Shown here piece by piece: positions 26,001-38,199 of a stretch of DNA of 64,000 bases (position 1 is its first letter; the number at the start of each line of letters is the position of its first letter). Made by a program: the position numbers and the translations under genes. Where the stretch lies: positions 3,387 to 67,386 of IMG/VR virus record IMGVR_UViG_3300036398_000516. The stretch is one strand, 5' to 3'. The DNA is from a virus. The notes under the pieces were generated by a model. It made no database searches. It saw only the letters and a program-made list of their open reading frames with translations, and was not told the DNA's origin.

Positions 26001-26128
26001 TCTCCTACAAAGCCAGGACCTACAGATGCTTTTACATCATTAGGATTAAACTTTTTACCAAAGTTATCTTTAGTCTTTTTCTTTAAGACCATTCCTCCTT
26101 GTTCATATTTATCTAACCACTTAGCCAT
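23039..26128 (-). CDS. Large virion protein (1029 aa) with HExxH motif and two tandem ADP-ribosyltransferase-like modules
   Basis: Long ORF. An HEMFH motif lies at aa 192-196. Two internally homologous modules lie at aa ~655-725 (MYRG...TPTS...FSKAYYSPRF...IAEV) and aa ~845-915 (LYHG...GVGIYTTPSKT...SYAYSSRSF...VYEL). Module 2 resembles the PARP/diphtheria-toxin-type ART core H-G-S ... G-x-G-I-Y-F ... S-K-S ... Y-x-E. A GGWLDKY-like motif occurs at the N-terminus, middle and C-terminus. Confidence 0.6.
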   Translation of the reverse strand: MAKWLDKYEQGGMVLKKKTKDNFGKKFNPNDVKASVGPGFVGDGYNTKGRNYSPAWGGQFAMGGSMPGAVGFTYARTAGSAPANGKYTKKTKASAQDGKKLYGATDAEEQSVKDFAKSYYASDRFKENLYDKGNFGIKDKSAQISKEAINKINNLSYTYKPLDRTGFDKGNIINMGNPNEYLNAPKDLAFAHEMFHPMEKEILSVQPRNVMIMLNHNALKNRKGDANALYQDMVSPIPTTADNKPIYSSVGDWRQSKIKDFADEEQQLSSTSMHDDLIGEVRADIMALRYLANKKGIWDVTKSGVKDMTPEMLNELYKSPELNKQMYKSDSSGKTKYLPSEKAKAPGNLKGVEAPKNPGLMLDRLKQRYSDKDLLYLMNKLAKNEGEVPMDQAQNGKEMKFYQEGLDFKPKSISKNGSVIKDDRGQWAHPGEITEIDSNEITMQGVDYPVLGVSDMGDVQMMYPGEDYKFDGDKVTEYPMMQGGGWLDKYPEPMRQDATRVAAPIRPLTKKEQEENARINKETQKRTKERDEKIIAERAAKRKTKGDVNVPGSFNIAEKARLFPESVGGVGEMFDDYLNPATYVGVLADALGESIAARDPKAIATSLALAAGTGALGIDPLGSALKVPGKVAQSMESGLLSNAYKLNPYAFKPTEGMMYRGLGKEGMEDAVQSGLFRAKQNVTPTSIGNFNTTRQFSKAYYSPRFDIADQYGQGFIAEVPRAASDWGKRYGKKEWSQIAQRDIPTTEGKILKKDWLKGYKEVSKNKSTKVSEIDWAKWNPEIPKNKKLMEEYINIENSTKANDVWMKNPDGSEFKGTPEQFVQQQSQNFKKAFGNSKLVNPDGSPIMLYHGAPERFNVFDPALFQRGDAGYSGVGIYTTPSKTVADSYAYSSRSFIGGKEHTPTVYELYGQANNPISSEQLVNEGGKRDLFNFNRTANWKGEIPIEERLTGYDAAIANKHPNVTNVRPWNDAYEIVFPTNKQLKSAVGNNGMFDMNNPNIYKALLPAIGVAGIAGASQKKNGGWLSKYK

Positions 26129-26994
26129 TACTTGTAAGAAATTTGAGCAGGTGTAATAATGAATTGAGATACCAATTGAGCCTCTGATGTATTATCAAGG
26201 ATATGTCTTACCTTTAATTCTTTAGCTCTTAAAGGTTCTTTCTTATATGATCTTTTTCCGTAATCCATATTAGCTTGATTTACAATCTTGTCTATTGATA
26301 ATGACTCACAGCTCACCGTAAACAAAGGTACGGCTTTATTTTTAACTAAACTCCAAAAAGTATTATACTGATAAAAATTATCAGATTTAGTATATGTGAT
26401 AGTTTTGCTCTCAGCATTATATAAAGGATATTGTAAATAGGCTTTTAGGTTATTAATTGGTTTTGGTACCAATTCTAATATACCTGTAGACTGCTGTCCG
26501 TTATATAATACTGCTTTATTAAACCATTGATTATCAGTTTCTATCTGAGCATTATCATTAAACACACCATCTGGTATAGGAAGATATTTATAAGCTTTTG
26601 TATAGTCTTTTACATTCTGAAGAATCTCATCATATGATTGATATGAGAATGGATATTCAATAATGTAAGGTTCTACAATATCATAATACTTATTATAAAT
26701 AGTTGTGTTAGCAAGATGTTTCCACAAAGAAGCTGTATTAATTGGAGTGTATGTAACAGCAGCTATTTGTTCAACAGTCATTGTTGTAATGTCTATATCA
26801 ATAGTAGTCTTACACCTTCCTGTAGATTCTATAATAATTGAAGTAACAGCATCAGCAACACTCACTGTGTAACCATCAATAAGGTTATCCTTGGACACAG
26901 CTGTGCCCAAAACAGTACCTAAGTTATCATAGATATTGAATGGTCCTGTTCTGTTACCAGCTCCTGTTAATTTTATTATTACTATTTTAGCCAT
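26128..26994 (-). CDS. Putative tail fiber / receptor-binding protein, member of a 4-paralog family with a shared N-terminal anchor domain (288 aa)
   Basis: The N-terminus MAKIVIIKLTGAGNRTGPFNIYDNL...STGRC aligns with the N-termini of ORFs 27006-27812, 36323-36934 and 36949-38199. The C-terminal part is unique. Confidence 0.55.
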   Translation of the reverse strand: MAKIVIIKLTGAGNRTGPFNIYDNLGTVLGTAVSKDNLIDGYTVSVADAVTSIIIESTGRCKTTIDIDITTMTVEQIAAVTYTPINTASLWKHLANTTIYNKYYDIVEPYIIEYPFSYQSYDEILQNVKDYTKAYKYLPIPDGVFNDNAQIETDNQWFNKAVLYNGQQSTGILELVPKPINNLKAYLQYPLYNAESKTITYTKSDNFYQYNTFWSLVKNKAVPLFTVSCESLSIDKIVNQANMDYGKRSYKKEPLRAKELKVRHILDNTSEAQLVSQFIITPAQISYK

Positions 26995-27005
26995 CTTTTA
27001 TTTTA

Positions 27006-36322: not shown

Positions 36323-36934
36323 TTATGAGCAATTGTTTAAAAATTGCCAGAATGATTGATGAGTTAATGATGTATCACTATAAGCTAACACCGTTGATCC
36401 TAACTTTAACTGTATTGTAAAATATACAGGAGTTGCTGATCCAGAAGGCTCGTAATACAATATCCTAGCTGTAGAAGGCTGTGTATCAGTTAAACTTACA
36501 CTAGCTGTAGATGCAGGGAAAGTTGTAACTAATTCTACGTATGATGCAGGAGGAGCGTTGTTTACAATTATATCATAAACTACAGCACAAGCAGCATTAT
36601 CATTACAGTTGTTATATTTACAAATTGGTTGTCCTAAGTAGATAGTTGGAACAATAGGAGCTTCTGTTGTAGAAGTACTTGTTGTAGAACTAGTAGTACT
36701 AGTTGTTGTAGCAGGAGCACCTGATACATCTAAATAAAGATCTCTTTGACAAGCTCCTGTAGATCTAACTAAAACTTCTGTAGTTCCATCAGGAACAGTT
36801 GCATTATAGCCAGCTACCAAAGACGCTCTAGATACACCAGAGATGATTATTGTTGAAAATCCATTTGAATTTGAGTAGATGTTAAATGGTCCTGTATCAG
36901 AACCAGCTGTTGTCAAAGTTATTAATACTGTCAT
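36323..36934 (-). CDS. Putative tail fiber / receptor-binding protein, paralog family member (203 aa)
   Basis: N-terminus MTVLITLTTAGSDTGPFNIYSNSNGF...GVSRASLVAGY...STGAC matches the family anchor domain. This is followed by a Thr/Ser linker and a unique C-terminal domain. Confidence 0.55.
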   Translation of the reverse strand: MTVLITLTTAGSDTGPFNIYSNSNGFSTIIISGVSRASLVAGYNATVPDGTTEVLVRSTGACQRDLYLDVSGAPATTTSTTSSTTSTSTTEAPIVPTIYLGQPICKYNNCNDNAACAVVYDIIVNNAPPASYVELVTTFPASTASVSLTDTQPSTARILYYEPSGSATPVYFTIQLKLGSTVLAYSDTSLTHQSFWQFLNNCS

Positions 36935-36948
36935 GTTGGTTTATTTAA

Positions 36949-38199
36949 TTAAGGTAATTTTGTCCAATTAGATCCACCATCTGTAGATCTCCAAAGTCCA
37001 GTTGTTTCTGAAGCAACTGCTACAGTTGCATTGTAAGAGATGGATACTCCAACCCATTCTTTAGAACTTCCCACTGCAGAAAGTGTACCAAATGAAACTG
37101 ATCTATATAAAGTGCTTGCACCAGTTGGAAGAGCTATAATATTTGTACCACTTCCATCTATAGCTACATCATACCATTTAGAAGAAACCCCACCAAACTC
37201 TACGAATGAATTTCCATAATTTGTACTTTGTAGTAATTGAATATTTGCAGGAGTGTATCCATAAACTCCAGCTTGATTAGCAACAACAACCTTTGACCCA
37301 TCAGCAGATGTGCTCACTGCCCAATATGTTTCGTTAACCCCACGTCCAAAGACATTAAGAGCTGGGGTTAAAGGAGTTGTTCCTTTTCCTACACAAGCAT
37401 CAAGTCCACCTAAATAAAAATTAGGACTAACAGCATATTGACGATCACCTGAACTACTTATTGCAACATCAGTTGCTGCTTGTTCGCCAATAGTAGTAGC
37501 AAATGATACTCTTGTAAAAGACACTCCGTAATCTGAAGATCTCCAAACCTGAGCTATACCAAATTGCCCACTAGTTGCTTCACTTAAATTCATTGCTGCA
37601 ATTAATACATATTGCCCTGTTCTATTTGTAGTAATTGAATAGAATGAATTAGTTACACCACCTGTAGCATTCCAATTAACACCATAGTCTGTAGATCTTG
37701 AAATAACAGCTGCTTGTCCTTGTGGTTGTGTAAGACAATACATGTATTGACCCGTTCCACTTACAGCAACTCTTTGAAGTGTATTTGTCCCAGCAACAGT
37801 AACTGATCTATAGGTAAGTCCATAGTCATTAGAAATATATAATTTATTATTTGATCCACATACCACTGCAACATATTTTCCATCATTTGAGCTAGTAACG
37901 TCATCTCTGCTTACAGAAATATTGCTAAATCTAAGATTGTTAGTTGGATTAATTGTAGTGGTTGTAGTTGTAGTGCTAGCACATGGAATAGCTTGTGATA
38001 TTACATTTGTACAAGCTCCAGTAGATGTTACTGTCACTTGACTAGCAGCGTTGTCTACATCAACAACTTTACCTGCAAGCAGTTCTGCTTTTGTAGCAGT
38101 TGATGGACTTACACTTCCAACATCTGCTGTTAAATTAAAGTTTGGTCCTAAGTTAGCACCTAACCCAGCACCTAATGTTAATGTTATATTTATTGCCAT
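36949..38199 (-). CDS. Putative receptor-binding protein with N-terminal family anchor domain and C-terminal BNR/Asp-box beta-propeller (416 aa)
   Basis: N-terminus MAINITLTLGAGLGANLGPNFN...STGAC, then a TTTTTTTINPT linker. Repeated S-x-D-x-G-x-[ST]-[WFY] motifs follow: SNDYGLTY, STDYGVNW, SSDYGVSF, STNYGNSF, STDGGSNW. These are typical of BNR/sialidase-like propellers. Confidence 0.6.
   Translation of the reverse strand: MAINITLTLGAGLGANLGPNFNLTADVGSVSPSTATKAELLAGKVVDVDNAASQVTVTSTGACTNVISQAIPCASTTTTTTTINPTNNLRFSNISVSRDDVTSSNDGKYVAVVCGSNNKLYISNDYGLTYRSVTVAGTNTLQRVAVSGTGQYMYCLTQPQGQAAVISRSTDYGVNWNATGGVTNSFYSITTNRTGQYVLIAAMNLSEATSGQFGIAQVWRSSDYGVSFTRVSFATTIGEQAATDVAISSSGDRQYAVSPNFYLGGLDACVGKGTTPLTPALNVFGRGVNETYWAVSTSADGSKVVVANQAGVYGYTPANIQLLQSTNYGNSFVEFGGVSSKWYDVAIDGSGTNIIALPTGASTLYRSVSFGTLSAVGSSKEWVGVSISYNATVAVASETTGLWRSTDGGSNWTKLP

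Follow-up and report, generated by a model that had tools for sequence, protein, structure and literature searches.

The tail module of the window

The window, a stretch of 64,000 nucleotides (positions 3,387 to 67,386 of IMG/VR record IMGVR_UViG_3300036398_000516), comes from an uncultured aquatic crAss-like podophage. Its tail module includes the genes of a metallophosphoesterase (MPE), ring protein 2, an IHF/HU-like protein and ring protein 1 (32718..36141, assigned by PF25702 at 6.5e-17, PF24228 at 1.3e-9, phrog_704 at 1.5e-42, and phrog_12177), a muzzle gene, and the genes of four proteins that we call A, B, C and D, with a fifth, E, next to A (Table 1). A check of the window ORFs found A-E at the positions that the sequence-only reading had listed, all on the minus strand. 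The order MPE, ring 2, IHF/HU-like protein, ring 1 was kept in all related loci, the synteny of the tail module was repeated across 90 such loci, and the muzzle gene follows ring 2, the IHF-like gene and ring 1 and precedes the cargo and RNAP genes, the same order as in crAss001. The A-D genes are part of this crAss-like phage tail module. Separate fibre genes are also present, encoding a collagen-like protein with an S74 chaperone and a gp10-like protein. The terminator-like hairpin divides the unit of the fibre genes, E, A and B from the unit of MPE, rings, muzzle, C and D; A and B share a transcript with the fibre genes, ahead of this strong predicted terminator.

Table 1. Features of the tail module in the window (MUZ and MUZ_C, crAss_MUZ and crAss_MUZ_C; N-dom, the N-terminal domain of A-D)
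Feature	Position (nt)	Strand	Length or residues	Description
Protein D	26128..26994	-	288 aa	N-dom fused to muzzle C-terminal domain
D muzzle C-terminal domain	26128-26733	-	residues 88-288	
D N-dom	26779-26994	-		'D-type', signature NRTGPF
Protein C	27006..27812	-	268 aa	N-dom, Thr-rich linker, Cys-containing distal domain
C N-dom	27597-27812	-		
Muzzle tail	27820..28302	-	residues 1471-1630	Replaces covalent link to MUZ_C
Muzzle body	28303..32712	-	residues 1-1470 of 1630-aa ORF	Homologous to crassvirus muzzle up to the MUZ/MUZ_C boundary
Ring protein 1	32718-33686	-		
IHF/HU-like protein	33690-34166	-		
Ring protein 2	34166-34900	-		
Metallophosphoesterase (MPE)	34900-36141	-		
Hairpin	36263..36286	-		Strong, intrinsic-terminator-like; 10-bp stem with 7 GC pairs, then T10; after B
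Protein B	36323..36934	-	203 aa	N-dom, Thr/Ser linker, small Cys-containing distal domain
B N-dom	36719-36934	-		'B-type'
Protein A	36949..38199	-	416 aa	N-dom, poly-Thr linker, BNR/Asp-box beta-propeller
A N-dom	37984-38199	-	residues 1-72	Divergent 'A-type', signature LGPNF
Protein E	38214..39083	-	289 aa	Own conserved N-terminal module (~1-100 aa)

The N-terminal domain common to A, B, C and D

A domain of about 70 aa (N-dom) is common to the N-termini of A, B, C and D. In composition-corrected BLASTP, the B and D N-termini matched at 60 bits (8e-15, 41% over 69 aa), B and C at 55-56 bits (49% over 55 aa), C and D at 46-49 bits, and A matched D at 33 bits, B at 28.5 bits and C at 27-28 bits. 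An HMM of B, C and D only detected full-length A at 23.9 bits (E = 1.3e-7 among window ORFs) and scored A residues 1-75 at 31.3 bits, while about 5000 shuffles of the A N-terminus reached at most 10.9 bits (mean 1.4, sd 1.5). The alignment of A-D had 13 invariant columns, including G15, P16, F17, N18, G42, S58 and C62, with one invariant Cys per N-dom; past about residue 70 the likeness stopped and Thr-rich linkers started. Composition does not account for these pairwise and profile scores, and the shared N-terminal domain proposed from the sequence alone held for A, B, C and D. It did not hold for E, in which a weaker version of the motif had been seen: E scored 0 to -1 bits with the N-dom HMMs, its best BLASTP match to a member had E > 1, and it was rejected as a member. 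Indeed, E is of a different family, its N-terminal module being common to proteins of 153-626 aa in the same slot of relatives, and its C-terminal domain (180-289) had 36% identity to the distal domains of the N-dom proteins P0140 and P0080.

AF2 confidently modelled N-dom as a seven-strand Ig-like beta-sandwich (pLDDT 91.6); therefore the segment is not a signal peptide, and it is predicted to be a real, autonomously folding structural domain. Pfam, PHROG and NCBIfam had no model for it, the Pfam models Big_2, Big, FN3 and I-set did not match it, and comparison with crAss001 virion proteins and their PDB chains gave no sequence or fold similarity. The fold is generic, and N-dom is an Ig-like domain that had no earlier catalogue entry and forms a new sequence family.

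When 1.8 billion proteins were searched, N-dom was found at the beginning of about 2000 protein clusters at 50% identity (1978 cluster representatives at E <= 1e-3, E-values down to 1e-31), and among the best 150 of the 1978 representatives the match started at residue 1-6 in all but one. The order in these proteins was N-dom, linker and then unrelated C-terminal domains. Numerous members had only N-dom and a short Thr tail (72-110 aa); such proteins display nothing and need a separate explanation, e.g. filler subunits or remnants. In every context examined, the carriers belonged to one clade of crAss-like phages of about 110-117 kb from metagenomes. Moreover, Foldseek against BFVD identified the UniProt entries A0A7S9STY0, A0A7S9XH99, A0A7S9SU37, A0A7S9XFL2 and A0A7S9SU94 of 'Virus NIOZ-UU157' as true members (TM 0.81-0.92, 26-42% identity), which makes five N-dom paralogs in one genome (939, 417, 287, 77 and 77 aa), annotated only as uncharacterised; the titles and abstracts searched held no paper describing them.

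The split muzzle gene and the exchange of distal domains

The muzzle protein of crassviruses is encoded here by the 1630-aa ORF, which matched PF25731 (crAss_MUZ) in three stretches at 131.1 bits (cut-off 27, E 5.9e-38), phrog_37948 at 4e-102 and the N-terminus of phrog_15100. The muzzle protein of PhicrAss001 is gp44, composed of PF25731 crAss_MUZ and PF25729 crAss_MUZ_C (Bayfield et al. 2023, PMC10172136), with the Pfam boundary at gp44 1235/1244. Residues 36-1470 of the muzzle body were collinear with Lbo-JY46 muzzle 30-1457, and window MUZ 869-1470 plus D 88-288 with Lbo-JY46 muzzle 895-1457 plus 1461-1654. In addition, D residues 88-286 matched phrog_15100 positions 1588-1781 of 1783, and D 88-288 matched the muzzle C-termini of Lbo-JY46 (8e-23) and FpV phages. 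D did not reach the Pfam threshold against PF25729 directly, and gp44 gave no direct sequence match, the identity being too low; in profile-profile comparison (hhalign), D-type C-termini matched the crAss001 gp44 C-terminal profile (Prob 94.9%, E 4.4e-8), D residues 88-178 lying on gp44 ~1237-1312, the PF25729 region. The muzzle gene is split exactly at the boundary of crAss_MUZ and crAss_MUZ_C, and D joins N-dom to the muzzle C-terminal domain, most probably MUZ_C. Gene C lies between the two ORFs that encode the parts, the split was kept in 36/36 informative related loci, and a D-type gene was present in 36/36 related loci with visible DNA after the muzzle gene. N-dom was not found in the phages with an intact muzzle gene (Lbo-JY46, phi4:1, FpV), and among the genomes and loci compared its co-occurrence with the muzzle split was strict.

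AF2 of D gave pLDDT of about 90 for N-dom and below 50 for the remainder (the MUZ_C part), which was not folded. D had 2651 homologues at E <= 0.001, the best 120 of which were 286-289 aa long and 75-92% identical. D had been counted as a fourth receptor-binding paralog with a C-terminus diverging like the others; we rejected it as such, because it is the split-off MUZ_C and its best-scoring 120 homologues are that conserved. The divergence stands for A (BNR propeller) and for B and C (Cys domains, Thr/Ser linkers). D belongs to the conserved core, A, B and C to the accessory proteins, and the N-doms of B and C are 49% identical with 5' DNA at about 70%, which does not fit the duplicated cassettes that had been read into the two gene pairs.

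Protein A has five Asp-box motifs (S-x-D/N-x-G-x-x-W/F/Y, at residues 123, 169, 221, 325 and 405), and its matches to Sortilin-Vps10 (6.8e-6, 25.6 bits, Pfam cut-off 33) and BNR_6 (5.9e-5, 23.2 bits, cut-off 27) were below the Pfam cut-offs; A-type N-doms in relatives were in proteins of 417-427 aa, 132 aa and 74 aa. The B-type, present in nearly all related loci, is the commonest free N-dom form, and the exact B protein was on 10 metagenome contigs. The muzzle gene and D are separated by a variable slot, which C occupies here and which has 0-2 N-dom genes in relatives. The B and C distal domains had no family match in Pfam or PHROG and, A's weak BNR signal aside, no known receptor-binding family is recognisable in the distal domains.

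In the muzzle tail a junction, GLNEGCDLEAIAVMEIP, is conserved, alongside linkers of poly-Thr, short repeats of the form C-x-L-x-G-T/S-A and a distal domain that varies. Counted from FFYSG, a motif about 10 residues ahead of the junction, tails were 46-505 aa long in relatives, and they bore distal domains with 64-85% identity to the ones in N-dom proteins. Longer tails went with fewer free N-dom genes (rho -0.65, p 0.004, with no phylogenetic correction), and the count of the short Cys motif in muzzle tails did not track the N-dom gene count (rho 0.23, p 0.37). Cassette swapping among related phages, which had been raised as something to look for, was found: in 177 pairs, N-doms at least 85% identical had unrelated C-termini. 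The B N-dom was 98.6% identical in L015 (160 aa) and P0001 (212 aa), which have differing C-termini, the C distal domain had 81.5% identity to P0007, and P0003 and P0005 joined C-like N-doms to other C-termini. Near-identical N-doms with unrelated C-termini are direct evidence for cassette swapping. Diversity-generating variation, also raised earlier, had no counterpart here: in 25000-42500 there was no DGR-type template/variable repeat pair, and the long near-identical direct repeats were collagen-like and poly-Thr coding repeats only.

Proposed docking at the muzzle and known systems

Beside the observed family, fold, split, swapping and phyletic pattern, we infer that A, B and C enter the virion, that N-dom has a docking partner there and that the distal domains bind receptors. 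Indirect pointers to virion entry through N-dom are its fusion to MUZ_C in D and the place of the genes in the tail module. The gene of the tail-tip gatekeeper, the muzzle, comes as two pieces: the 1630-aa ORF, which stops at the domain boundary and runs on into a flexible poly-Thr tail with a variable distal domain, and D, which brings MUZ_C behind the Ig-like N-dom. Most likely, N-dom serves for docking and sits on the muzzle; the N-dom of D is covalently tied to MUZ_C, and those of A, B and C would bring their proteins to the same assembly by binding either D's N-dom or a site on the muzzle that they have in common. With its flexible linkers, the hexameric tip of the tail could then present several different distal domains, which would probably serve in adhesion to, or recognition of, the host surface, while recombination in the conserved N-dom and linker sequences may swap distal domains between phages and also move them between N-dom carriers and the muzzle tail. 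We consider this explanation as a whole, of split muzzle, N-dom docking and exchangeable displayed domains, to be probably correct, and it suggests a plug-in tail system for changing tail-tip display. More tentatively, N-dom might be a self-associating docking tag, which would hold the split muzzle together and load interchangeable host-binding domains non-covalently onto the hexameric gatekeeper, a cohesin/dockerin-like 'plug-and-display'. The earlier picture of a shared anchor with exchangeable distal domains, with anchor and binding as putative roles, is largely supported because D is N-dom plus MUZ_C and A, B and C are N-dom, linker and swappable distal domain; its conserved N-terminus and exchangeable C-termini are kept, but these are not the classic tail fibres it described, the phage having separate fibre genes.

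It seems rather unlikely that N-dom is instead a generic Ig-like adhesion or decoration domain (cf. Big_2, FN3, Hoc-type) that weakly binds host or environmental glycans, with other parts holding the proteins on the virion, if at all. Tail proteins as a rule attach by their conserved end, and the swapped parts of this family are the C-terminal domains; the domain-only proteins have no other part able to anchor them, the D-type N-dom is fixed beside MUZ_C in every genome examined, and the strict co-occurrence with the split and the lack of Pfam Big, FN3 or I-set matches also argue against it.

The N-dom proteins could also be the functional counterpart of crAss001 THA and THB (gp38, gp39), a collar on R1/R2 that docks collagen-like fibres, and we hold this to be improbable. 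THA and THB sit by ring protein 2 in the gene order (PMC10172136), and A and B (a single B-type gene in most relatives) are likewise just upstream of ring 2, separated from it only by the metallophosphoesterase; paralogs come in small and large forms, like THB and THA, and the invariant Cys of N-dom recalls the crAss001 hubs, which are disulfide-linked to the rings (PMC10172136). However, no sequence or fold similarity to any crAss001 PDB chain was detectable, the only free N-dom gene of L062, L064 and L066 follows the muzzle gene instead of preceding ring 2, in D it is MUZ_C, rather than the rings, to which N-dom is linked, and variable, swappable C-termini suit display better than a hub role.

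Mimicry of the T9SS C-terminal sorting domain, by which N-dom would engage the host translocon (SprA/PorV) as receptor or entry route, is very improbable; N-dom neither matches the CTD sequence models nor has a C-terminal location. Chance or compositional similarity, or a signal peptide as the mildly hydrophobic first ~10 residues (MTVLITLTTAG) might hint, has practically no remaining probability and is refuted by bit scores far above the shuffles, by the database E-values and by a beta-sandwich at pLDDT > 90, together with conservation over 70 residues and the absence of a basic n-region and cleavage motif.

Host recognition by crassviruses is poorly understood; PhicrAss001, the only solved virion, suggested contact of the muzzle with the cell surface and offered no route to rapid host-range change. 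The present clade gives a concrete genetic solution, in which the muzzle is split at a domain boundary, a new Ig-like module of about 70 aa is added, and a pool of distal domains common to the muzzle tail and separate carriers moves between them. If true, the docking-tag reading would explain how host recognition diversifies in a very abundant aquatic clade without touching the conserved muzzle core. The findings offer testable targets (the N-dom/muzzle interaction and the distal-domain ligands); further, N-dom and split MUZ_C are a marker pair for recognising these uncultured aquatic phages, and the module could serve engineered display on podophage tails.

Among receptor-binding proteins of modular build, in which the N-terminal anchor is conserved and the C-terminal domains can be exchanged, are T7 gp17, the SP6/K1-5 and Klebsiella KP32-type anchor-branch depolymerases and CBA120 TSP1-4. 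The N-dom proteins resemble them in the conserved N-terminal module, the unrelated C-terminal modules, the several paralogs per genome and the exchange among related phages. In contrast, N-dom is a small sandwich of Ig type and shows no sign of a trimeric anchor, the linkers consist of long poly-Thr stretches, some members have little beyond N-dom, the muzzle itself carries the same distal domains, and one member (D) is part of a split structural core protein. Ig-like accessory domains reportedly occur on phage structural proteins, T4 Hoc being an example, and the likeness is an Ig-like beta-sandwich on tail-associated proteins; unlike them, N-dom is the conserved N-terminal element of stand-alone proteins and not a C-terminal add-on, and it is without a match to the Big_2, I-set or FN3 models. 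A further frame of comparison is PhicrAss001 gp44, with which the window agrees in the order ring 2, IHF-like, ring 1, muzzle, cargo. There the muzzle is one polypeptide, whereas in the window it is two genes separated exactly at the MUZ/MUZ_C boundary, the first piece gaining a poly-Thr tail with variable domains, the second an N-terminal Ig-like domain, with 0-2 extra genes between the pieces.

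The N-dom family and its gene neighbourhood

The five minus-strand ORFs A, B, C, D and E were all found in place (table). Composition-corrected BLASTP of the N-termini gave 60 bits (E 8e-15) for B-D, 55-56 bits for B-C and 46-49 bits for C-D, a clear relationship among these three, and 27-33 bits for A, the weaker member, against the others. An HMM built from B, C and D only scored 23.9 bits for the full-length A ORF (E 1.3e-7 among window ORFs) and 31.3 bits for A residues 1-75, against a maximum of 10.9 bits in about 5000 shuffles of the A N-terminus, which excludes chance similarity. 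When the four are aligned, 13 columns do not vary (M1, I5, L7, T8, G11, G15, P16, F17, N18, L39, G42, S58, C62), and the alignment stops near residue 70, where Thr-rich linkers start. The sequence-only reading had proposed this family with E as a weaker relative; the four-member family, here called N-dom after its ~70-aa N-terminal domain, kept its significance under composition correction, and the inclusion of E had to be dropped, as E scored near 0 bits with all N-dom profiles and on these scores is not a member. A MAFFT alignment had hinted at a cryptic N-dom with an insertion in E, which was rejected on the same scores and on E's own conserved N-terminal module.

A profile of the four N-termini had 1978 matches at E <= 1e-3 among 1.84 billion cluster representatives, 1152 of them with E <= 1e-10; in the best 150 of the 1978, the proteins were 95-510 aa long and, with a single exception, the match began at residue 1-6. 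In the fetched sequences the N-dom is followed by poly-Thr tracts and then by unrelated, often Cys-containing domains, and many members have just 72-110 aa, an N-dom with a short Thr tail. AF2 (123-sequence alignment) modelled the N-dom as a seven-strand beta-sandwich with one short helix (pLDDT 91.6, pTM 0.79); Foldseek against the PDB returned no significant match, and Pfam, PHROGs and NCBIfam hold no model of it. Given the confident fold and the lack of a catalogued model, the N-dom is a genuine structural domain belonging to a family not yet catalogued; this bears out the earlier view of the shared segment as a structural domain and excludes a signal peptide.

Searching PDB sequences with the muzzle protein, with D, or with profiles of the N-dom and of the MUZ_C type (muzzle C-terminal domain) gave nothing usable. 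Neither megablast of the region against GenBank phages nor tblastn of the N-dom consensus against 50,697 GenBank phage records, intact-muzzle relatives included, found a match. Among 185,579 species genomes the N-dom occurred in five MAG contigs only, which are probably binned phage fragments, so the bacterial genome scan gives no host assignment. In BFVD, one annotated genome, Virus NIOZ-UU157, has the N-dom, with five members.

By their Pfam and PHROG matches, the fibre-to-cargo genes form a crAss-like tail module, the order of which parallels gp40-gp47 of PhicrAss001 (PMC10172136).

Features of the tail module, in gene order from the fibre genes to the cargo genes
Feature	Coordinates	Matches and remarks
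gp10-like fibre protein	40965-42068	Pfam/PHROG
Collagen-like fibre with S74 chaperone	39083-40945	620 aa; Pfam/PHROG
E	38214-39083	minus strand
A, N-dom protein	36949-38199	minus strand
B, N-dom protein	36323-36934	minus strand
Gap after B	36142-36322	181 nt; minus strand
Terminator-like hairpin	36286-36263	3' of B, then T10; minus strand
Metallophosphoesterase (MPE) / DNA-repair-exonuclease-like	34900-36141	phrog_704, 1.5e-42
Ring protein 2		PF25702, 6.5e-17
IHF-like protein		
Ring protein 1		PF24228, 1.3e-9
Crassvirus muzzle protein	27820-32712	1630 aa; PF25731, 5.9e-38
Muzzle tail	27820-28302	residues 1471-1630
C, N-dom protein	27006-27812	minus strand
D, N-dom protein	26128-26994	minus strand
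1029-aa protein	23039-26128	directly after D; ART-PolyVal ADP-ribosyltransferase domain PF18760, 9.3e-14
Two large proteins		
3923-aa ORF	4824-16595	position of crass-type virion RNA polymerase

The collagen-like fibre has two long G-T-S tracts (PF01391, 1.4e-28) before its C-terminal S74 intramolecular chaperone domain, and these repeats cause long spurious ORFs on the antisense strand. The MPE gene lies between N-dom genes and ring protein 2 in nearly all related loci, and a tail module is an odd location for a nuclease-like enzyme. The 1029-aa protein, probably an ejected cargo or effector, carries the HExxH-like motif HEMFH, and the length of its gene differs greatly among relatives. The 3923-aa ORF had no Pfam or PHROG match; its counterparts in relatives have 3753-4124 aa.

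The strong terminator-like hairpin after B assigns A and B to the unit transcribed with the fibre genes, with C and D in the ring, muzzle and cargo unit. Relatives have a gap of similar size. The Bacteroidota -7 promoter consensus is TAnnTTTG, and TAAATTTG, downstream of the hairpin, matches it, which would fit a Bacteroidota host. Among the muzzle proteins of GenBank phages, the nearest (34% identity) is from Leptolyngbya phage Lbo-JY46 (L001), a cyanobacterial and not a Bacteroidota phage, which makes any host assignment tentative.

Protein D and the split muzzle

D residues 88-286 match the final 200 of the 1783 positions of phrog_15100, a muzzle-type family whose N-terminus matches the 1630-aa ORF. 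Against the intact Lbo-JY46 muzzle (1654 aa), window muzzle residues 869-1470 align with 895-1457 and D residues 88-288 with 1461-1654, in exact collinearity, and the muzzle C-termini of FpV and phi4:1 correspond to D likewise. A profile of D-type and muzzle C-termini matched that of the C-termini of gp44, the PhicrAss001 muzzle, at about 1237-1312 (hhalign Prob 94.9%, E 4.4e-8); a single-sequence comparison was weak (Prob 11%), and this mapping required the gp44-family profile. As Pfam ends crAss_MUZ of gp44 at 1235 and begins crAss_MUZ_C at 1244, the muzzle is split at a recognised domain boundary. Pfam recognised neither the Lbo-JY46 and phi4:1 muzzles nor the C-terminal part of D. On these alignments, D is an N-dom joined to the split-off muzzle C-terminal domain. 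The insertion at the split comprises, in order, the conserved junction GLNEGCDLEAIAVMEIP, poly-Thr linkers, C-x-L-x-G-T/S-A repeats, a variable domain and a stop codon, followed by gene C and the N-dom of D.

D has 2651 homologues at E <= 0.001, the best 120 of which have 286-289 aa and are 75-92% identical. In the AF2 model of full-length D the N-dom reached a pLDDT of about 90 and the MUZ_C part stayed below 50, so that part was of no use in a fold search; its failure to fold could reflect dependence on the muzzle body or equally a shallow alignment. Many gut-crassvirus proteins of ~150-170 aa, most on short contigs, have crAss_MUZ_C (PF25729) only (among P0423-P0449); on contigs of ~100 kb, P0457 (169 aa) has PF25731 only and P0438 (330 aa) both muzzle domains. 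Such proteins may represent fragments or artefacts of stop-codon recoding, or the muzzle may have split independently in these phages.

At least 491 IMG/VR loci were confirmed with the N-dom profile, and lakes (JGI samples 3300033994, 3300042361 and 3300044971) are a source of such contigs. In 80 of these loci, taken together with ten from other look-ups, the order was constant: fibre genes, 0-4 N-dom genes, MPE, ring 2, IHF-like, ring 1, muzzle, 0-2 N-dom genes, D and cargo. The minimal set was one B-type free protein and D, and A-type and C-type paralogs occurred in subclades. A D-type gene was present in 36/36 loci with visible DNA after the muzzle gene, with no contrary locus, and the N-dom is missing from intact-muzzle relatives; therefore, N-dom and split co-occur strictly in the loci examined. 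That the N-dom is a generic Ig-like adhesin domain is unlikely, for it fits poorly both this strict link and the conservation pattern. Gene position hints that N-dom proteins form a hub like the PhicrAss001 tail-hub proteins THA/THB, a reading quite improbable given no sequence or fold support and a conflict with loci that have their sole free N-dom gene after the muzzle gene.

Exchange of distal domains

The cassette swapping expected from sequence was observed: among 271 distinct members, 177 pairs had N-doms at least 85% identical and C-termini of no detectable similarity. L015 (160 aa) and P0001 (212 aa) have N-doms with 98.6% identity to that of B, and different C-termini. Conversely, distal domains of muzzle tails in some phages are 64-85% identical to those of N-dom proteins of other phages (for example L053/P0113, L041/P0010, L062/P0071 and L013/P0003). 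Free N-dom genes tended to be more numerous where the muzzle tail was short (rho -0.65, p 0.004, phylogeny uncorrected). Diversity-generating variation, also suggested for a check, was not borne out, as no DGR-type TR/VR repeat pair was found in 25000-42500; the diversity comes from domain shuffling.

E represents a second modular family (proteins of 153-626 aa, conserved N-module of ~100 aa) in the same slot in L015-L041, with distal domains from a pool also used by N-dom proteins; its own C-terminal domain shares 36% identity with distal domains from two such proteins.

Muzzle tails of the window and of L013-L094 carry, after the first poly-Thr linker, 1-5 tandem C-x-L-x-G-T/S-A repeats of ~11-13 aa, such as NCNLGGTAEYV and NCTLTAGSVQES, the latter type resembling the N-dom start ITLTTAGS. 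Docking of one N-dom protein by each motif was rejected, the counts being uncorrelated (rho 0.23, p 0.37).

Proposed docking at the muzzle and known tail designs

The best-supported model places the N-dom at the muzzle as a docking module. D holds one N-dom covalently beside MUZ_C, and A, B and C would join the same assembly through theirs, each presenting its own distal domain on a flexible Thr linker, with the muzzle tail displaying like domains covalently. The family, its fold, the muzzle split, the swapping and the phyletic distribution are shown directly; the incorporation of A, B and C into the virion, the binding partner of the N-dom and ligand binding by the distal domains are what we infer. 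A pure display model does not account for the domain-only members. Previous work on PhicrAss001 proposed that the distal muzzle touches the cell surface, which makes a role of the N-dom system in host adhesion or recognition plausible by analogy.

The exchangeable-fibre reading thus stands for the shared N-terminal domain with swapped C-termini and fails for D, which carries the muzzle C-terminal domain. Our limited literature search of titles and abstracts returned no paper on the N-dom family or the split muzzle. Phage tails are known to combine a conserved N-terminal anchor with distal domains that can be exchanged; what is new is the N-dom anchor family itself, its strict tie to a naturally split crassvirus muzzle, and one pool of distal domains on which both the muzzle tail and free-standing carrier proteins draw.
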